Positions 1,862-25,882 of a stretch of DNA of 41,364 bases are shown one piece after another (within the stretch, counting starts at the first letter, position 1; every line of letters starts with the position of its first letter). The DNA is taken from positions 1-41,364 of IMG/VR virus record IMGVR_UViG_2563366951_000005; one strand, 5' to 3'. This DNA is from a virus (Duplodnaviria > Heunggongvirae > Uroviricota > Caudoviricetes). The notes beneath the pieces were generated by a model, which was given only the letters and a program-made list of their open reading frames with translations, made no database searches and was not told the origin of the DNA. The position numbers and the translations under genes were made by a program.

Positions 1862-4800
1862 TCAGAATACTCCCGTTAATCGGCCAACCTGCACCCTAAG
1901 AACATTACTGCCATCTTTGACGCTGATCGTCTGATTTGTCAGTTTCATGGCTCCCTCACCAGCAGTCGAACCGTAGTTCTCAAACGTCCCCCCTTTATCA
2001 AGCTTCCAGCCAGCAGAACCAGCAACATAATTGTTCGACTGGATAAAATTACCAATCTTTGCGTTGCTGATAGTGCCGTCCTGGATGAAACTGGCCCGGA
2101 TGAATGTCTGCCCGTTCTGGATCACAAACGGCAAAGCCACGCTGTTACCTGCTGCCGTGGTGACGGCGAAGCGGTCAGCCAGGAAGATGACCTGTGACTG
2201 CATGCCGGACGGCGTATTCTCCACGCCGATCCCCATCCCTGCGGCGTAATACTGACCATTGCTGGAGACACCAACCTTGATGCTGTACATCGCCTTCAGA
2301 TCACCGTTAACGTTCGCTATGGCCTGAGCGTTAGTGGTAATGGCTGATGTGTGTCCGTTGACGGTCGCTGTGATCCCGTTTATCTGCGTGGCCGTGGCCT
2401 GCTGGTAATCGGAGAACGTCTGGTTCAGGCTGTTGATAGATGCCTTGTTGCCGTTCACGTTAGTCTGCAAACTCAGCAGCGAACGCGCCGTTGCCTCTTT
2501 CTCGTTGACGATCACCTCATCAATGCGGTCCAGCTGCGCGCTGTTACCGGCGACGGATGCAGACAGCGTTTTGCGCGCCGCCACCTGCGCCAGGTTGCCC
2601 TGAATAATCGCGATGGCAGAGTTCTTCACTCCTCCCGTCATACCGTCCACAGACACGCTGATGTTATCGATGCGCTGGCCCAGCGCGGTATCAGCCGTCG
2701 CCACTGTCTGCTCAAGCTTGCTCAGAGAAGAAGACACATCTCCGACCGTGCTCGACAGGTTTGTAACGCTGGTCTGAACCTTCCCGATATCCTGGGCGTT
2801 TTTGGCGATATCCTGCGCCTGTTGCGCCAGTTCGTCGTTGGCCTGTTTAATGTCGTCAGCCATACCAGCAATTTTTTCATTGCTGTCTACCGCGTTCTCG
2901 ATCAGGTCTTTGAACGTTTCCGACTCTTTCATATCCTCCAGGATTGCATCGGTGATATCGGATACATCGATGCTGGCCTGCCCGCGCACAAAGTCTGTAT
3001 ACCCTGATTCGTTTCCGCTGCGGTCCACCAGCTGCGCGCGGTACCAGAAAATTTGCCCAGCCTTTAGGCCCATCTGCTGATACTTGCGCTGCGGATAGGG
3101 TACGTCTGCCAGCAGCATCGCATCGTCTTCCGTCCCAGTCAGACTGTACTGAATTTCCGTCTTCAGCGTGTCGTCGGTGTTCGCCGGGAATCCCCAGCTC
3201 AGCTCGATACCGAATACCACATTATCGGAAGCGATGAAGCCGACCGGTTTCGGCGGATTGCCCACTTTACCCGTCAGCGTTTTCTCTTCCGAATATCCCC
3301 ACCCGGATGAAATTTCTGCGGCATTGATGGCGCGTACACGTACCAGATAGCGCCCGGCATAAATCCCAGGAACGTCGAATGACGTGGTGGAACTGCGCGG
3401 CACGTTAACCCAGTTCCCGTCGTTGCGGCGCCATTGCGCTTCATAGGCGATAGCATTCTGCGCCTGGTCCCAGCTCACGCGCATGGTTTCGACGCTGATA
3501 TTCTGCTGCACCACCGAAAACGAACTGATTACGATGTTGTCTGGCGGTGACTGATTGCCCGGCGGGATCACGCTCACCGGCCGCTGGTCAATAATGGCTC
3601 CGGTATCGATTCGGGCATATTTATCCGGATCGTGCCATGCACCGGTAATGGTGTAAGTGCCATCATCGTTATCAGTGACGCTCACAACACGGTACTGCTG
3701 TGCGTACAGTTCGTTTGACTCAACCACCCAGACAGCTTCGGCCTGCGGCGTCTCACTGTATGCGGTGGTGACTGTGACCGATTCCCCGTTAACCGCCTGA
3801 ATTGTCCTGCTCTGTGACGCTCCGGAGGGAAGGTTGAGGATAAGGCGATCACCTGCTGCCGCATCAGCTACACGGTCAAGTTTGATAACGCGACCATTAA
3901 CGGCGCTGATGCGTCCGCCCATAACCTTTCCGGAAAGCAGCTCGTCTGCCACAGCGATGATATAGCCAGGCTGCGGTATGTTTCCGTCCAGCCCGACATC
4001 GAACGAAACAACGCGATCCTTGTTGTTGGTGAGAATACCCCAGCGCCCCTTTCGGTTCGCTTCTGACTGTCTGGTACAACCAATGGCTGTCATTTCGAGC
4101 TGATTTGTGCCAAAGCGAGCAACGAGATCCTGCTCAAATACAGGCTCCATCGCATCCGCGTAGGCATTACCCGGATCGGACCAGGAAACCAGTGCTGTGG
4201 TATAGCGGGTTTTCGTGGTGCTGCCCGAATAGGTAAAGCGCCCATTAACCACGTTTGCACGCGTGTAGCTGTAATCCACATCGCGGGGCATATCCGCCAG
4301 CGCAACGATTTGATCGCCACCCCAGTAAGTCATGCCCCGGAATATCGCCGCAAAATCTCGTAACACGGTATAGGCGTCATTCCTCTCCTGCACATACACG
4401 TTGCAGGTATAGCGAGGCTCAGTGCCGCTACCGCCTTTACCATCAGGAACCGGCTGATCGCAATATTGCGCGACCTGGTAAAGCGTCCATTTATCAATAT
4501 TGGCCGCCGTCAGGCGATTGCCCAGCCCAAAGCGGTCGCTCACCACCAGATCGTAAAAAATCCAGGCTGGATTATCCGTCCACGCCCACTTAAACGCCCC
4601 CGTCCATGTGCCGCTATAGGTGCGGGTCTCCGGGTCATACGTATCCGGAACGCGGATTACACGCCCTCGCGGTTCGCAGGATATTTGCGGGATAGAGCCG
4701 TTAAACTGGCTTGAGTCGAATTCGATGTACAGCAGCGCGGTATTTGGATAACGCAGTTTGGCGTCAATGACCTCTGTATAGCTCTGCAGCGTCATCGTGT

Positions 4801-18249: not shown

Positions 18250-20171
18250 TATTCCTCTCCAGATAATGCCCGCGCGTAATCCGCCAGGGTCTTGTTATTG
18301 TTACGGCTGCCTTCTTCCTCCAGCAGGCTGGCCAGAAGTGAATCAAGATTTAGCTGCCAGCGGGATATGCTGATACGAAGCGCCGCCAGTGCATAAACAA
18401 AGCAATCGAGCGCCTCATTTCGTCGTTTTTTGCTGTCCCAGACGATCTTTTTCTTTCCGTCTACCCATTTTTCCACCTGCTCTTCAGCAGTTAGTTGTTG
18501 GGCCTCGGTTAGATCGTAGATTTCTGGGTTATTCGGGAAATGAACCGCTCCCGCCAGCGGCTCGTCTCTTTGCGCCACCAGCGTGAAACGGTTATAAATC
18601 TGCTCTTTTGCGGTGTCTGTTCCTACCTCAGTGAGGTAAACGCCACTCTTGTTACGCTTGCGTGGCATGTTCGCCACCGGCTTTCCATAAACCGACGCAC
18701 CCTTTATAGGGATCACACGAAACAGACCATGTTTTTTTGAGCGGTTGTAGACGATGGTGGGATCAATGCCGCCAATATCCCAGCAAGTGCGGGATATAAC
18801 CATTTCGAGACCGTTCTGGCGCTTATATGTCCTGTTGATCGCCTCATCCACTCGAGCGAGAGTCGACTCATCATCATGACGACCCATAACGATGATTTTG
18901 TCGATAAGCCAGCTTTCCTCTCCCGGTCCCCATCCCCATACACGCATTTCGTAACGGTCAAGCTGGGAGTCAATACCCGCTGTTAGATATGCCACTCGCT
19001 CCGGCACAGACGCTTCAAAGTGCTCTTTGCGCTCCGCTAAAACTTCAGCATCGGGTCGTTCGCCTATTTTCGGTTCCCACGTTTCGCCCAAGGTCGTGTT
19101 AACGAAGGTTTTGCGCTTACCCGTATCACCTTTTGTTTTTATCCAGTCCTTGACGATCTGCACCCAAGTTGTGAACGGGCTGTAAGCGGTCCAGATGTGG
19201 AATGTAACGCTGTCAGGAGGTTCAATTTCAGTACCGGATGAAGCAAACCAGTGAAGGCCGTCTCGCGTCCAGATACCTGTTTCATCACAAATATACCTGG
19301 CCTCAAGGAAATCCAGCTCTTGTTGTTTAATCACACAGGCATTGTGTTCACAGAGGTAGTAAACGCTGGAAGGTTCTCCCGGAGACCATTTAAAGCCAAA
19401 TGGTGTCTCTTCATCGCCAAATTTCAGATACTGCTCTTCCCCGCAGTGTGGGCATGGAACATGGAACCGAAGAAAATGTTCTGACTCCTTAGCAGCCCTT
19501 TCTATCTGGCACGTACCTTTGACTTTCGGTGTAGAGCCGCGAATGGATTTTGGCCATACAGAACCCTCAATACGCTTATCTCCCAGAAAGGTGGGAGAAC
19601 CTTCTTTCTCGATGTCATCATCGAAAGCGGCAAGCTCGTCGTAGCCAGCCACATCAACGGATTTTTCACGGTAGTTTTTTGCAGCCTTACCGCCCAGGCA
19701 CCAGAAACCACGACCATTTGAGAAACGCTTCATGCTAAGCGTATTGTCCCGGTGTTTTTTGCCGTACCAAGGAGCAAGCGCCAACAGCGTCGGAATATCA
19801 CGAATGGTCGGTTCGACATGAGACTTCATGAAGTTTTCAGCGTCACCGTCGGTTGGCAACCATATTAGGGAGTTACGCTGTTTATGCTGGATGAAATATG
19901 CGTAAACGCCGAGCAACATTTTTGAGTAGCCGACACGAGCAGATTTAACGACATTCACTTCGCGGATATAGTCATTGCCCATCGCATTCATAATTGCACG
20001 CTGAAAGGGCAGTGTTTCCCAGCGCCCTTCCTGGTAGGCAGACTCTTTCGGGAGATAGTAATTCTCATCTGCCCATTCAACCGCTGTTTGCGGTTCTGGC
20101 CGGTAAAGCGAACGTAGCCCCGCCCGCGCAGAGTGCTGCAGCCCCTTAACCTGACTGTTCGATATATTCAC
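18249..20171 (-). CDS. A: terminase large subunit A
   Basis: 640 aa (lambda gpA 641), directly after Nu1 with overlapping start. Confidence 0.95.
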
Positions 20172-20691
20172 TCAGCAACCCCGGTATCATTTCATCCAGC
20201 GCAGCTGCTTTGTTCATGGCCTTAATGATGTCCTTCTTGAGGAAATCAATATGTCGGTTCTCCAGCTCCGGGAAGCGCCGCTGAACCGACAGAGGTATTC
20301 CATCGAGAATACTGGCAATTTCTCCGGCTACCCGCGACAGCACGAACGTGCAGAATGCGGTCTCCACCACTTCAGCGGACTCTTTTGCATTTTTTAATTC
20401 CTGAGCGTCAGCCTGAGCTCGCGTAAGTCGGTGTCGCTCATATTCAATAGTGCCAGGTTGAAGATCGGACTCAGAAGCAATGCGGAGATCTTCAACTTCC
20501 TTCCGCAACTTTTCATTTTCTATGGCTGCATCGCGCGCACTGTACCATTCGATTGCGGCAGCAGATTCAAAGAGAACCTCATTACCCTTGCCACCACCGC
20601 GGGCAACCGGCATACCTTGTTCCTGCCAGTTCTGAATCGTTCGGACGCTCACCCCGAAAATTTCGGATAAGCGTTTTTTGTTAACCTCCAT
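20146..20691 (-). CDS. nu1: terminase small subunit Nu1
   Basis: 181 aa; MEVNKKRLSEIFGVSVRTIQNWQEQGMPV... near-identical to lambda Nu1 as recalled. Confidence 0.97.
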   Translation of the reverse strand: MEVNKKRLSEIFGVSVRTIQNWQEQGMPVARGGGKGNEVLFESAAAIEWYSARDAAIENEKLRKEVEDLRIASESDLQPGTIEYERHRLTRAQADAQELKNAKESAEVVETAFCTFVLSRVAGEIASILDGIPLSVQRRFPELENRHIDFLKKDIIKAMNKAAALDEMIPGLLSEYIEQSG

Positions 20692-20866
20692 GGCTCACTC
20701 CTGGCACAAAACAGAGAAAGGAAACAATCAACGGTTAACTTCCGTTTTCCATGATTAGCATTTCCTTTCTGGAGAGAGGATGTTTTCAACAAAAACAATG
20801 AGAAAACAAGAAGAAGAACGGAAATGGCATAAACCAGAAAATTTTCATAAATAGCGATAATCTGCG
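20692..20866. other. cosB-like terminase binding region between cosN and Nu1
   Basis: Reverse complement aligns by eye with the lambda left end (TTTTCGCTATTTATGAAAATTTTC..GTTTCCTTTCTCTGTTTT). Confidence 0.75.
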
Positions 20867-20878
20867 CGGACGCCGCCC
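20867..20878. other. cosN, 12-nt cohesive end (GGGCGGCGTCCG on the minus strand)
   Basis: Matches lambda cohesive end GGGCGGCGACCT at 10/12 positions; flanked by lambda-like right-end sequence CGTAACAAGGCGGATCGCCGGAAAGGACCCGC. Confidence 0.8.
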
Positions 20879-20979
20879 CGTAACAAGGCGGATCGCCGGA
20901 AAGGACCCGCAAATGATAATGATTATCATTTGCGGGAATGCGACTTGATTCGCACCCATTTGGACGTCTAAACGTCCAT

Positions 20980-21447
20980 TCATCGCGACAGCGCTGACCA
21001 TATCGTGCCACCTGGCCGAAGACTCTTCTTCAGTTCCTCGGACACAACATCTGAGATCGCTTTTACCATTTCAGGGGATAGCTTCACGCCGGTCTTAATT
21101 TCGGGACAGATGCCAACATTGATGGCATAGCCTTTTCGTGGGTCGTTCTCTATCCGGCCAAACTGAATATTTACAGAGCCACCAATATAACCACCAGCAG
21201 GAACACCAAAGCGCGTATTCACCAGGTGCTTAATGGCGAACTCCTGCCCTTCAGCGGTCAGGAAGGTGTAATAATTTTCCTTTTGATACTCCGTCGCGGT
21301 ATGGCGTGTTTCAGCGAATCCCAGCTCTAGAAGCTCAGCAGCACCAGATTTGGCTGGCAGATCACCAGACTGAAGCGCGCCACGGAAAAACAGCGCATAC
21401 AGAACATCCGTCGCCGCGCCGGACAACGTGATAATTTTATGACCCAT
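20980..21447 (-). CDS. hypothetical protein (155 aa), cargo gene adjacent to cos
   Basis: Clean ORF with ATG start; no motif I can assign. Confidence 0.65.
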   Translation of the reverse strand: MGHKIITLSGAATDVLYALFFRGALQSGDLPAKSGAAELLELGFAETRHTATEYQKENYYTFLTAEGQEFAIKHLVNTRFGVPAGGYIGGSVNIQFGRIENDPRKGYAINVGICPEIKTGVKLSPEMVKAISDVVSEELKKSLRPGGTIWSALSR

Positions 21448-21559
21448 GATTTATTTCCTTTTAGGCGTGAGCCTGTCGCACGGCAAAGCCGCCGAAAGTT
21501 AACGGTTTGCCCAGGCTCACAACTGAAAGACTTTCTACGGTGTGCGCGTGCGATGCGCA

Positions 21560-21583
21560 TAAAAAAGCCCCGCATAAGCGAGG
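21560..21583 (-). terminator. intrinsic terminator (GCCUCGC-UUAU-GCGGGGC + U6 on minus strand)
   Basis: Stem-loop with one G-U pair followed by U-run; lies between the 73-aa and 155-aa ORFs. Confidence 0.5.
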
Positions 21584-21607
21584 CTAAATATCGAACAACT
21601 TCTTTTG

Positions 21608-21829
21608 TTAACTGCGCGTGAAGTTGTGGTGGATGAAGTCGTCAGAGCCTAACCGATGTGAGCCATAATGGGCTTCATAGCCCTCACCTAGTGAGGCTGC
21701 CTTAGTTTCGGCCACATCTTTGGTGGCGTAAACACCGACTAAATGCCACGGGGCATTCCTTACAACCCCCCACCCCATAACCCAACCTATATTATCAAGG
21801 TCAGGCTTCAAGCCTTCTGCAACAAACAT
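21608..21829 (-). CDS. hypothetical protein (73 aa)
   Basis: ATG at 21829 preceded by AAGGAGA; upstream 17 codons of the tracked ORF lack an RBS. Confidence 0.55.
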   Translation of the reverse strand: MFVAEGLKPDLDNIGWVMGWGVVRNAPWHLVGVYATKDVAETKAASLGEGYEAHYGSHRLGSDDFIHHNFTRS

Positions 21830-21888
21830 ATTTATCTCCTTTGGGTACCCGGAGATAATGCTAAGCAATTGAAGCTGCAAAATAAATA

Positions 21889-22134
21889 CTATTCAACAAG
21901 CTCTGCTGTAATTGTTAACCAGCTCAAATCAGGCCGATCATGCATCACATGTACAGCTGATTCATCAACATCGACAGCGTAAATTTTAGTGAAGGGATGG
22001 GAAGCTTTACCGGATAAAGAATCCTTCACTATCACACTTTCATTCTGAATAACCTGGAATGTGACGTTTGCGGCTCGAACAATACCCTCGTAGTGCTCTT
22101 CAAGGTGAGCAATTGTAACTTTAACTTTTTTCAT
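21889..22134 (-). CDS. hypothetical protein (81 aa)
   Basis: ATG at 22134 preceded by AAGGAG at 8 nt; tracked ORF extends 11 codons further without RBS. Confidence 0.55.
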   Translation of the reverse strand: MKKVKVTIAHLEEHYEGIVRAANVTFQVIQNESVIVKDSLSGKASHPFTKIYAVDVDESAVHVMHDRPDLSWLTITAELVE

Positions 22135-22241
22135 AGGCTGGCTCCTTGGCTGAATGGCAACAGGCATTAGGTGAGTGTCTGCTGTAACGCCTATCCCTTA
22201 GCGGGGATAATGGTTGCTTTATCCCTTGCTAGGGATAAAGA

Positions 22242-22757
22242 CTATTGACGCTCGCTCTCTATTTGACGAATTCCAGCGAAATTGTTATTGCCCTTTTCAA
22301 TCACGGCCAGCAGCGGCTTAATCCAGAGCACAGCCTGGCAGTACGTTATTGAGCCGGCGGCAGCGGTACTATCATCGGCTGCGTTAATTCCGTCGGTATC
22401 GGCGTGCATTGCGCTGGAACGTAAACGGTACGCGTATTCGAGCAGCCCACCAGCAATGTCAGCAGGAACAGGCAGATCACAGGTTTTTTCACGGCGGAGT
22501 ATCTCCCGGTATTCAATTACGGTTTCTTCGGTGCTGGTGTCGATCAGGGAGTTAAGCCTGTTGGCATGTTCTGCAACCTGATTGAATCGATTGAAGTTGA
22601 ATGCCTGGGTGGCGATCACCTGCCCCTGCATAGAGTTGTCACTTCGCAGAACGTCGTTATCGCTCTGTAGGCTACTGGCGTCGGAGCAGCTCTTAACGAG
22701 AGCGACGGAAAGGCCAGCAATAACGACAACGCCGATAAGACCCGGATTAATTTTCAT
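22242..22757 (-). CDS. Rz: spanin, Rz-like inner-membrane subunit
   Basis: N-terminal hydrophobic segment, position directly after the endolysin with ATGA overlap; an embedded Rz1 was not resolved. Confidence 0.7.
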   Translation of the reverse strand: MKINPGLIGVVVIAGLSVALVKSCSDASSLQSDNDVLRSDNSMQGQVIATQAFNFNRFNQVAEHANRLNSLIDTSTEETVIEYREILRREKTCDLPVPADIAGGLLEYAYRLRSSAMHADTDGINAADDSTAAAGSITYCQAVLWIKPLLAVIEKGNNNFAGIRQIESERQ

Positions 22758-23293
22758 TGGTCCAGCCCCCAGCACGCCAGCGCGCTTTCCTGGTCCCGTC
22801 GCTCAACCTGGCCATAGCAGCCATTCTTCTGGCCTTTGGTTAGACGACAATCACGGCCACCGTCTTTAATCCACCAGCGGATTGCCTCGCATGCACCGAT
22901 GCGGTCACCTGCGTTGATGCGCTTATAGAAGGTCGATGGGAAGCATTTACCGGGGCCGATGTTATACGGGCAGAAGGATGCGATACCCACCTTCTGAGGC
23001 TCTGTCAGAGGCACTTTGATATTGCGATCAACCCAGGCTAATGCCTTATCGCGTTCAATAGCGTTAACCTTCCGGCATTGTTCCTCAGTGGCCGTCATGC
23101 CTTTAACAACACGCCTGCCATCGATAACGGTCACGCCGTGACATAAAGACCAGACCCCACCCGGATCAACAACGGCCACCAGCGCATTGCCTTCTTTCTC
23201 GCTGATGAATTGGTCAAAAATGAGTGGAGCAGAAGCCCCTGACGCGATTAGCGCCAGCACTGCTACGCTGAGCTTTGCTTTGTTCGACATCAT
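22754..23293 (-). CDS. R: SAR endolysin (phage lysozyme with N-terminal signal-anchor-release domain)
   Basis: 179 aa; weakly hydrophobic Ala/Gly-rich N-terminus followed by E...D...catalytic region; P21-type architecture; follows pinholin. Confidence 0.8.
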
Positions 23294-23575: not shown

Positions 23576-24628
23576 TTATTCCCCTGCCAGCTGCCTTACC
23601 TCACTTACCGTCTGGTTGAAACGTTCCTCTTCCAGTTCTACGCCGATAGCCTGGCGGCCCAGTTCAATGGCTGCTTTAACAGTTGATCCCGAGCCCATAA
23701 AGAAATCAGCTACCACATCGCCGGGCCTGCTGCTGGCGTTGATGATTTGCCGCAACATATCAGCGGGCTTTTCGCACGGGTGTTTGCCTGGATAGAACTG
23801 GACGGGTTTATGTGTCCAGACGTCTGTATAGGGCACGGCTACTGTCACAGAGAAATGCCGCCGAAGAGATTTGTACTCTTCCAGCAGATCAAGGTATTTC
23901 CGGTTCAACGAATGCCATGTGGCCACCAGCTGGTGATGCGGTGCTTTGAGTTCAGAGGCGCGGTGCTTCTCAATGGCGATCTGAGTGAACAATTCCTGCA
24001 GCTTTTCGTAATCCTGCTCGTTTGGTAGTTGCCACTGACTGGTACCGAACCAGTGAGACGCCATATTTTTCTTTCCGGTGGCGTCAGCTATTTGCCTGGA
24101 CGTGACCCCCAGTTCGGCTCGTGCATCACGAAAGTAGGTGATTAACGGAGCCATGACGTGCTGTTTGACCTCGTTGCTTTTCTCAGCAAATCCGTCGCTT
24201 TTCGGATTATATGGCCCCTGATAATGCTCAGCGAAAAGGATGCGTTCCGTCGCGGGGAAGTAAGAGCGCAGGCTTTCTTTATTACAACCGTTCCAACGCC
24301 CTGATGGCTTCGCCCAGATAATGTGGTTCATAACGTTGAAGCGTTCACGCATCATGATCTCAATATCGGATGCAAGTCGGTGACCTGAAAACAAATACAG
24401 GCTGCCGGCAGGCTTAAGCACTCGCCAGAACTGGGCAAGACACATATCAAGCCATCGAAGATAGTCGGCGTCACCGTTCCACTGATTATCCCAGCCGTTC
24501 GGCTTCACCTTAAAATAAGGCGGATCCGTAACAATAAGGTCGATGGTGTTATCTGGGAGGGTAGCGAGGTATTGCAGGCAGTCAGCGTTGATAAGCTCAA
24601 CACTGTTTATATTTACAGTATTTTTCAT
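23576..24628 (-). CDS. DNA methyltransferase, beta-class N6-adenine/N4-cytosine type (DPPY then FMGSGST)
   Basis: 350 aa; motif IV LIVTDPPY near N-terminus and AdoMet motif FFMGSGST near C-terminus with an insertion of roughly 230 aa between them. Confidence 0.85.
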   Translation of the reverse strand: MKNTVNINSVELINADCLQYLATLPDNTIDLIVTDPPYFKVKPNGWDNQWNGDADYLRWLDMCLAQFWRVLKPAGSLYLFSGHRLASDIEIMMRERFNVMNHIIWAKPSGRWNGCNKESLRSYFPATERILFAEHYQGPYNPKSDGFAEKSNEVKQHVMAPLITYFRDARAELGVTSRQIADATGKKNMASHWFGTSQWQLPNEQDYEKLQELFTQIAIEKHRASELKAPHHQLVATWHSLNRKYLDLLEEYKSLRRHFSVTVAVPYTDVWTHKPVQFYPGKHPCEKPADMLRQIINASSRPGDVVADFFMGSGSTVKAAIELGRQAIGVELEEERFNQTVSEVRQLAGE

Positions 24629-25168: not shown

Positions 25169-25861
25169 TCACATTTCCGCCACTTTCAGTTCTTGGTACT
25201 CTTCGTACCGTGACAAAATTTCGCTTAGTGCCTGGCTATCCATTTCAGCAAACGACGCTTTGAAAGCCGCCCAGTGGCCTGAATACACTCTGAGCCAGGT
25301 GGAACGCTCAACGCTGACCATGCGCGCCAGAGCTGCACCAGCATACTCCTGATAGGTATCGTTATTACGCGAGGCAGCAACTTCTTGCGCCGCCAGCCAG
25401 ACAAGCCCTACCAGTTTTTTAGTGACGCGGCCCTGTATTTTTTTGCCGCTATGCTGACGCTGAAACTGTTCCCACACGTGCTGGCACATCAATGTCTGGT
25501 ACCGGAAAGTAAGGTCATACCCATAGCAGTACCGCACCCATGCCTGCAAATGCTCACCCAGACCATTGACCGAACGACGCCATGCTGAACAAGCGAACTC
25601 CGTATCTTTAATAGGCGGCAAAGGTCGACGACGGCTCCTTGTCTCAAGAACATAAAATGGAGTGGCCAGCGTTGTTACAACCTTTGACCCACAACCTTCC
25701 CCACCCTCCATGACGATTTCAGGATGGTGCCGGGGGTATTTATTCTTATCTGCTGGTGGATGCTCACTGAACGCCTGCAGCTGTCCTTTTGTCGATCCTG
25801 ATAAATCCGCCAGCGCGCGGCGCAGTTCAATCCGCGTATATTCCAGTTCTTGTAAATTCAT
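25169..25861 (-). CDS. Q: probable late antiterminator Q
   Basis: 230 aa from ATG at 25861; position immediately upstream of promoter/terminator and lysis module; family assignment from memory only. Confidence 0.6.
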   Translation of the reverse strand: MNLQELEYTRIELRRALADLSGSTKGQLQAFSEHPPADKNKYPRHHPEIVMEGGEGCGSKVVTTLATPFYVLETRSRRRPLPPIKDTEFACSAWRRSVNGLGEHLQAWVRYCYGYDLTFRYQTLMCQHVWEQFQRQHSGKKIQGRVTKKLVGLVWLAAQEVAASRNNDTYQEYAGAALARMVSVERSTWLRVYSGHWAAFKASFAEMDSQALSEILSRYEEYQELKVAEM

Positions 25862-25882
25862 TATGCTCAGCGCTCCATACAA

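Follow-up and report, generated by a model that had tools for sequence, protein, structure and literature searches.

We analysed a 41,364-nucleotide (nt) stretch of DNA from a virus of the class Caudoviricetes (IMG/VR record IMGVR_UViG_2563366951_000005, positions 1 to 41,364, the whole of which is called the window below), and within it the interval 20980-22241, which precedes the cohesive-end site, cos. The initial annotation of this interval had listed three small genes of 81, 73 and 155 amino acids (aa), each with its own ribosome-binding site, together with an internal intrinsic terminator and flanking palindromes, and had located them between the lysis cassette and cos. Three open reading frames (ORFs) of exactly these lengths were indeed found on the minus strand, between the Rz gene (22242-22775) and cosN (20867-20878). 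Each is preceded by a Shine-Dalgarno (SD) sequence, the distance from SD to ATG being 6-8 nt in all three cases, and each begins at a start codon that is conserved among its homologues. The internal terminator was found as well: its stem (21585-21566) has 8 base pairs (bp), six of them GC pairs, and is followed by a T-run. In the direction of transcription, the features of the interval are the following.

22192-22240, minus strand: two tandem hairpins of the type TTATCCC-N-GGGATAA, between the Rz stop codon and ORF-A, found by an inverted-repeat search
22157-22185, minus strand: imperfect hairpin immediately 5' of the ORF-A SD
21889-22134, minus strand: ORF-A, 81 aa, begins MKKVKV, with SD AAGGAG 7 nt upstream
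21608-21829, minus strand: ORF-B, 73 aa, begins MFVAEG, with SD AAAGGAG
21559-21585, minus strand: intrinsic terminator AGCCTCGC-TTAT-GCGGGGCT followed by T6, between ORF-B and the ORF-C leader
21448-21558, minus strand: predicted structured leader RNA of ORF-C, from folding and covariation
20980-21447, minus strand: ORF-C, 155 aa, with SD AAAGGA

The Rz-cos junction is a classic cargo site of lambdoid phages. In phage HK225, Rz abuts the cos region directly and all three genes are absent, so that the 1.26-kb interval is optional cargo. The closest sequenced phages, Phi06_2987 (100% identical) and mEp237 (99.1%), carry the three genes, which are labelled there as hypothetical only. In relatives the third slot holds other genes, as in Yokenella, where a gene for an FRG-domain protein stands in place of ORF-C. 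As detailed below, the interval appears to be made of two cassettes, one formed by ORF-A and ORF-B and the other by ORF-C with its leader, rather than of the single three-gene module first proposed.

ORF-A and ORF-B were compared with their counterparts in Yokenella, Citrobacter and Serratia prophages. The ratio of nonsynonymous to synonymous substitution rates (dN/dS) was 0.14-0.27 for ORF-A and 0.11-0.20 for ORF-B, with dS near saturation. Homologues form 19 clusters at 90% identity for ORF-A and 58 for ORF-B, in which the starts are kept at MKK(V/L)KV and MFVAEG, respectively. Because of the low dN/dS and the conserved start codons, both are genes under purifying selection and not chance ORFs. 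ORF-C has 458 homologues. All three products are predicted to be soluble: no signal peptide, lipobox or membrane segment was seen in any of them (the maximum 19-residue hydropathy is 0.7-1.2, and no N-terminus is hydrophobic), and their isoelectric points are 5.65, 5.86 and 7.84 for ORF-A, ORF-B and ORF-C.

Searches of Pfam, NCBIfam and PADLOC (PADLOC-DB 2.0 serving as the defence scan) returned no family for any of the three proteins at E <= 1. In PHROGs, only families of unknown function were matched, ORF-A falling in PHROG 2571 and ORF-B in PHROG 4280. Profile searches of Protein Data Bank (PDB) sequences with the ORF-A and ORF-B alignments gave nothing significant, and when the relatives of these two proteins were scanned one by one against Pfam, the only matches were to DUF families and below threshold (DUF7336 for ORF-B). 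No characterised family of morphogenetic or lysis proteins was found to include any of the three. The description of the genes as unannotatable thus agrees with the empty Pfam, NCBIfam and PADLOC searches, but it does not extend to ORF-C, where the fold of the N-terminal domain and a family could both be assigned.

ORF-A and ORF-B form a conserved gene pair, on a cassette separate from that of ORF-C. Of the 157 relatives of ORF-B found in IMG/VR, 80 loci were kept for a count of neighbours. An ORF-A-family gene, divergent 74-aa forms included, lies 53-63 nt upstream of ORF-B in 77 of these 80 loci, and conversely all 23 ORF-A loci also carry ORF-B. The ORF-A family falls to about 30% identity and yet still adjoins ORF-B. 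The possibility that the two genes assort independently was considered and rejected as a gene-call artefact, which arose from divergent ORF-A homologues that had been missed, by tblastn too, and from an ORF-B pseudogene. The sole locus that seemed to hold ORF-A alone, in a Citrobacter youngae prophage (locus L004, around 4300-4520), contains this pseudogene, with an in-frame stop, beside an intact ORF-A. Behind the pseudogene, the same prophage has a copy of the leader and a 485-aa cargo gene that resembles the family-2 glycosyltransferase cargo described below. True cases of ORF-B without ORF-A are confined to one Serratia prophage and to phages and prophages of Pseudomonas; in Pseudomonas phage YMC11/02/R656, the ORF-B homologue lies antisense to tail genes.

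The ORF-B family has a near-invariant motif, GWVxGWGVVR…PWHLVGVY…YGSHRLGSDDF, while ORF-A looks all-beta, judging from an alternating pattern in its alignment. Among 45 unique variants, about 40 have a hairpin with a T-run 3' of ORF-B, and its stem has several unrelated sequences; since hairpin and T-run are kept while the stems differ, the terminator is conserved for its function. At the other end of the pair, the two tandem hairpins at 22192-22240 have no T-run behind them and are seen in the closest relatives only. Many of the 46 unique regions upstream of ORF-A have a conserved imperfect hairpin element (…ACAGCAGGCATTCACTGAGTGCCTGTGATAATGC…) just before the SD (loci L149 to L171), of which the hairpin at 22157-22185 in the window may be a diverged form. 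This element could be another leader or an operator.

The third gene is preceded by a segment of a different nature. From the terminator to the start of ORF-C there are 110 nt, which are 92-99% identical across otherwise unrelated phages. A pattern scan of IMG/VR yielded at least 120 loci with this leader; 129 copies were compared for the gene that follows, and 74 unique sequences for their helices. In 127 of the 129 copies an ORF of at least 40 aa starts 13-21 nt after the leader (17-21 nt in all but one), and these ORFs belong to more than 25 N-terminal sequence groups. Products that pass Pfam thresholds include Rha, KilA-N, T5orf172, HNH and tail-tip-fragment proteins, a family-2 glycosyltransferase being matched below threshold. 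Examples are the KilA-N gene of HK620, the T5orf172 gene of HK106, a gene of HK639 inserted among tail genes, an annotated putative Rha-family regulator of CobraSix, the glycosyltransferase gene of mEp390, and both rha and x171.28 of phi80. The two phi80 copies (locus L003, 792-925 and 2382-2504) represent two subtypes, with cores of 92 nt and 107 nt; one of the copies stands before x171.28 and the other before rha. The window has one copy.

The leader was predicted to fold into the following elements.

21558-21544, minus strand: P0 hairpin
21529-21506 with 21487-21458, minus strand: long hairpin P4/P3L/P3U, which pairs the SD (AAAGGA, 21461-21456) with an anti-SD, CTTT
21553-21548 (P0 loop) with 21481-21476 (3' bulge), minus strand: P1, pseudoknot helix
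21535-21530 with 21499-21494 (apical loop), minus strand: P2, pseudoknot helix

The minimum free energy (MFE) fold, at -42.9 kcal/mol (z = -2.56), consists of the long hairpin with the SD paired. In this fold P1 has both its arms free, while P2 has a free 3' arm and a partly paired 5' arm, so that P1 and, with a minor rearrangement, P2 can form over the hairpin as pseudoknots. Four perfectly complementary haplotypes of P1 were encountered (TCGCAC/GTGCGA, TCTCAC/GTGAGA, TCGTAC/GTACGA and TCACAC/GTGTGA), as well as at least six haplotypes each of P2 and P3U; in P4, the anti-SD/SD helix, CTTT/AAAG is changed to CCTA/TAGG in a compensatory manner. Over the alignment, 94% of cells are paired, compared to at most 50% when the partners are slid, and both partners have changed in 14 pairs, where shuffling gives 7.3±1.3 (none of 500 shuffles reached the observed value). 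As a control, arms were swapped between leader sequences, and this shortened every helix. The haplotype listing was used for P2, since the MAFFT alignment sets this helix one column off in the 107-nt subtype and its counts for P2 are therefore underestimates. P1, P2, P3U and P4 thus covary, and the element stands at a fixed place before the start codon, as is characteristic of a structured cis-regulatory leader RNA.

No Rfam 15 family corresponds to the leader; two matches below threshold (E 0.3-0.5) were driven by the terminator. No description of the leader sequence strings was found in the literature that was searched. In GenBank records the leader is unannotated, the upstream terminator alone being marked, and of 5426 complete E. 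coli genomes, 229 contain it, a DH5a assembly among them, likewise with no annotation. An upstream ORF starting from an ATG after the terminator was rejected, as copies such as that of HK620 do not keep this ATG and the substitutions follow the pattern of base-paired helices.

The product of ORF-C could be divided into three parts. Its N-terminal domain (about aa 6-80, nt 21208-21432) has the three-helix bundle and beta-hairpin wing of a winged helix; it is followed by a poorly predicted beta segment (aa 85-122), and then by a C-terminal amphipathic helix with a PGGTIW motif (aa 125-155, nt 20983-21075). ORF-C falls in no curated winged helix-turn-helix family of Pfam or NCBIfam at the threshold given above. 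Across the family in enterobacterial prophages, the N-domain hardly varies, the middle is a hypervariable mosaic, and the C-terminal helix with PGG(T/L/I)(I/L)(W/Y) is conserved. The middle modules of the larger relatives are recognisably derived from the central tail-fibre protein J: they give partial matches to PF09327 (Phage_Tail_Tip), which pass the Pfam gathering score in relatives P0044 and P0067, phi80 x171.28 and HK639_13, and they are 41-49% identical to J proteins. ORF-C is the minimal member, with about 70 residues beyond the winged-helix domain. The family also includes genes of two model phages, x171.28 of phi80 and gp59 of N15. Together with its leader, ORF-C appears to be a separately mobile unit, apart from ORF-A and ORF-B.

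Members of this family are named 'Fur-regulated protein' or 'phage tail tip fiber protein' at NCBI; no literature description was found for the phi80 'Fur-regulated protein', for N15 gp59 or for rha in connection with IHF. Proteins of the type of HK639_13 (L015), including those of L037, L051, L085, L136 and others, combine an FN3-like or other N-domain with J-like tail-tip and coiled-coil modules and end in ALKPGGLLY. Their genes, which are separate from J, also follow a copy of the leader, and the proteins look like free-standing C-terminal halves of the central tail fibre. The winged-helix domain of ORF-C also exists as a stand-alone protein of 75-100 aa in the lytic jumbo phages Erwinia RisingSun, Pseudomonas PhiPA3 and Noxifer (BFVD), which means that it is not specific to temperate phages.

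We then considered how the three genes may be transcribed. On the same strand they are preceded, in order, by the Q antiterminator (25169-25882), a DNA methylase, a P21-type holin, a lysozyme and the Rz-like spanin, and followed by Nu1 (20146-20691) and then the gpA terminase, these neighbours being assigned partly from the mEp237 annotation. A consensus hexamer scan of both strands of 20500-22900 detected no sigma-70-like promoter, and 45 of the 46 sequence variants likewise had none before ORF-A. Because no promoter was detectable, the genes read in the late-operon direction, and each cassette lies behind a terminator or a hairpin, transcription is proposed to come probably only from the late promoter, by Q-modified RNA polymerase resistant to terminators.

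Our preferred reading, to which we give a probability of about 0.5, is therefore that the interval holds two independently mobile accessory cassettes of the late operon, transcribed in a Q-dependent manner, with gated translation of a DNA-binding ORF-C product. Both would have been inserted between Rz and cos. The first would be the ORF-A and ORF-B pair, encoding small, soluble, acidic proteins and closed by the intrinsic terminator; the second would consist of the portable leader of about 100 nt and then ORF-C, with its winged-helix N-domain and helix-PGGxxW end. The three genes would be late lytic accessory genes rather than conversion genes expressed from the prophage. The leader would probably gate the translation of ORF-C, the SD being paired with the conserved anti-SD and the two pseudoknot helices bracing the hairpin, so that translation would by default be low until some trigger opened the fold. 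The ORF-C product itself would most likely be an oligomeric, putative DNA-binding accessory factor in the same niche as Rha and KilA-N, a proposal drawn from its fold and from the slot that it shares with them.

Several points weigh against this reading. The hexamer scan, from which late-only expression is deduced, misses promoters that are weak, of the extended -10 type or read by alternative sigma factors. Morons, often expressed from the prophage, are classically recognised as insertions flanked by terminators, and the antisense ORF-B homologue of the Pseudomonas phage must have its own promoter there. ORF-C itself has no PF09327 match, and BLASTP against the J protein of the window gave E >= 1.1 (about 1-3). 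In addition, the same C-terminal modules are found behind other N-domains, for example an FN3-like one resembling that of J, and such replacement suggests that the function shared by the ORF-C family may be something other than DNA binding. Instead of gating translation, the leader could act as a stabiliser or as a site of processing, and covariation alone cannot separate RNA structure from single-stranded DNA structure.

The first explanation offered for the interval was that it carries cargo at the position of lambda bor, for lysogenic conversion or for defence against other phages, expressed from the prophage. Its accessory character is borne out, as the interval is dispensable, being absent from HK225, and its third slot is swapped between relatives; the insertion point is that of bor, the genes are flanked by terminators like morons, the families are found mainly in prophages, and the antisense position of the ORF-B homologue in YMC11/02/R656 implies independent transcription. 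For the analogy with bor and for a role in conversion or defence, however, no positive evidence emerged: neither a promoter-like site nor a PADLOC family was detected in the scans above, the genes are oriented like the late operon, and the proteins have none of the export or membrane signals looked for, unlike Bor, Cor and HK97 gp15. We consider this explanation unlikely. The idea that ORF-A and ORF-B might be a toxin-antitoxin or abortive-infection pair is suggested by two small adjacent genes that stay together down to about 30% identity in ORF-A, with upstream palindromes that could serve as operators. Against this, ORF-B occurs without ORF-A in Serratia and Pseudomonas, the Citrobacter locus keeps ORF-A beside an ORF-B pseudogene, the genes are separated by 53-63 nt and do not overlap, both proteins are acidic, no promoter was detected, and no known toxin or antitoxin family was matched in Pfam, NCBIfam, PADLOC or the PDB. 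Such a pair is therefore the least probable of the alternatives, and a very improbable one.

For the ORF-C family, an alternative is a virion-associated accessory of the tail tip or fibre, or an assembly partner or poison subunit of gpJ, the N-domain acting as an adaptor. The J-like segments and coiled coils of the larger relatives, the name 'phage tail tip fiber protein' given to many members, the mosaic middle, hypervariable as is typical of receptor-binding proteins, the J-like FN3 domain at the N-terminus of some members, and the place of HK639_13 among tail genes would all fit this explanation, and expression in the late operon suits a structural role. It is more difficult to reconcile with ORF-C itself, which has only its 70 or so residues past the winged helix and no significant match to J, and with an N-domain that has a canonical DNA-binding fold and stands alone in unrelated jumbo phages. 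Moreover, the C-terminal PGG motif matched no J protein by tblastn, the J matches ending at query residue 77, and no proteomic evidence was found. We regard this possibility as doubtful, on a level with conversion or defence cargo. A different objection concerns the conserved 100-nt element, which might act as DNA, as a recombination boundary or a site for protein binding, and not as a functional RNA: it marks the junction where differing cargo genes are exchanged, and large parts of it are nearly invariant, as would be expected of a linker for homologous recombination. Yet compensatory double substitutions keep four separate helices, the change of the SD from AAAAGG to ATAGG is accompanied by that of the anti-SD from CTTT to CCTA, and the start codon is kept at a spacing of 17-21 nt. 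A role at the DNA level only is thus rather improbable, though slightly less so than a toxin-antitoxin pair; DNA-level and RNA roles are not mutually exclusive.

A broader proposal may be put forward tentatively, with somewhat less confidence than the two-cassette reading. The leader (21448-21558) could represent an undescribed class of phage cis-regulatory RNA, a doubly pseudoknotted, SD-sequestering portable switch for the rotating late accessory genes of lambdoid and P22-like phages, and the winged-helix/J-fragment chimeras, including ORF-C, could be a new functional class. Their roles would be, for instance, to interfere with or decorate the tail tip, or to act on phage DNA late in infection. 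If translation is indeed gated by the leader, this would account for the restraint on accessory proteins that may be toxic, such as Rha, and it would define a portable 'expression cassette' driving mosaicism. Being short and abundant, the leader is also a convenient handle for experiments.

Comparison with known systems places the locus near the lambdoid morons (lambda bor, HK97 gp15 type), with which it shares dispensability and absence from HK225, a position between conserved late genes, an intrinsic terminator and mosaicism. It differs from them in having no detectable promoter, in lying on the strand of the late operon with a terminator or hairpin upstream, and in encoding soluble cytoplasmic products rather than lipoproteins or membrane proteins. 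Among the features that define a moron, the insertion and the downstream terminator are thus present, whereas an own promoter was not seen in the consensus scan. The lack of promoters and defence signatures calls for caution before every gene at the bor position is assumed to be conversion or defence cargo. What is new in anatomy is the ORF-A/ORF-B pair, the winged-helix/J-fragment chimeric family, and a covarying leader common to many cargo genes.

The closest likeness of ORF-C is to phi80 x171.28, N15 gp59 and the DUF1983-containing family, with a winged helix more than 90% identical, the same C-terminal helix-PGG and the same position before cosQ; phi80 x171.28 also shares the leader RNA. 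These relatives are longer, at 190-280 aa compared to 155 aa for ORF-C, which lacks their J-like tail-tip and coiled-coil modules. Rha (PF09669) and KilA-N (PF04383) proteins occupy the same slot after the lysis genes behind the same leader, and combine an N-terminal DNA-binding domain with a variable C-terminal part. Their DNA-binding domain is, however, unrelated to that of ORF-C, which does not belong to either family by sequence, and Rha has a genetic phenotype, the inhibition of growth in hosts deficient in IHF (annotation of the phi80 record). Winged-helix factors of the MarR, HxlR and PadR types are only 9-20% identical to ORF-C, with no Pfam match, and the N- and C-terminal dimerisation helices of MarR are absent from it.

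As for the leader, it resembles SD-sequestering or pseudoknotted leaders, such as RNA thermometers and the preQ1-II and SAM-II riboswitches, in that the SD is paired in a conserved hairpin and that covarying helices form long-range pseudoknots. Unlike leaders of the preQ1-II and SAM-II type, it has no Rfam match and no known ligand or trigger, and it precedes cargo of many unrelated functions. This last feature argues against the leader being a sensor of a metabolite.

On the cos side of ORF-C, three further features were located.

20906-20936, no strand: perfect palindrome, arms of 15 nt each, 3' of ORF-C and before cosQ
20879-20905, minus strand: conserved segment resembling cosQ/R4, from alignment to the phi80 right end
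20867-20878, minus strand: cosN, with the 12-nt cohesive-end sequence CGGACGCCGCCC, from alignment to the phi80 right end

cosN and cosQ were placed by eye after alignment to the annotated right end of phi80, with the cos architecture described in PMC4669245 as a reference. The core of the palindrome (20914-20928) is a perfect Fur box, TGATAATGATTATCA, which agrees with the 7-1-7 consensus TGATAATnATTATCA at 15 of 15 positions and is its sole match in the window, where 0.12 are expected. The terS start is 230 nt downstream of it. Cryptic prophages of E. coli K-12 have equivalent Fur sites, at -233 for nohA and -133 for nohB; these are among the strongest predictions of the genome, and the nohA site gave a gel shift with Fur in vitro (PMC2189734). 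The site in the window is thus similar to these in having a perfect 7-1-7 box next to cos, at nearly the position of the nohA site, and differs from them in being in a live phage and downstream of ORF-C. In phi80 the same box is within the annotated cosQ/R4 region.

The palindrome with its Fur box is part of the cos region and not of the cargo. Both palindromes that had been noted at the flanks of the interval (20906-20936 and 22192-22240) are real. The Fur box was also considered as an operator of ORF-C; this was ruled out, as the box comes after the end of ORF-C and, relative to terS, is placed like the nohA and nohB sites. The label 'Fur-regulated' given to some members of the ORF-C family appears to stem solely from the Fur box nearby.

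Two other minus-strand ORFs overlap this region, one of 120 aa (20649-21011) and one of 71-72 aa (20786-21001, mEp237 gp63). They cross cosN and cosQ and are probably annotation artefacts. Finally, the DNA methylase gene that separates Q from the holin gene, where the late operon starts, encodes an N6/N4 DNA methyltransferase (23576-24628, minus strand). The same arrangement of Q, methyltransferase and holin recurs in prophages of Yokenella and of E. coli MSB1_9D.

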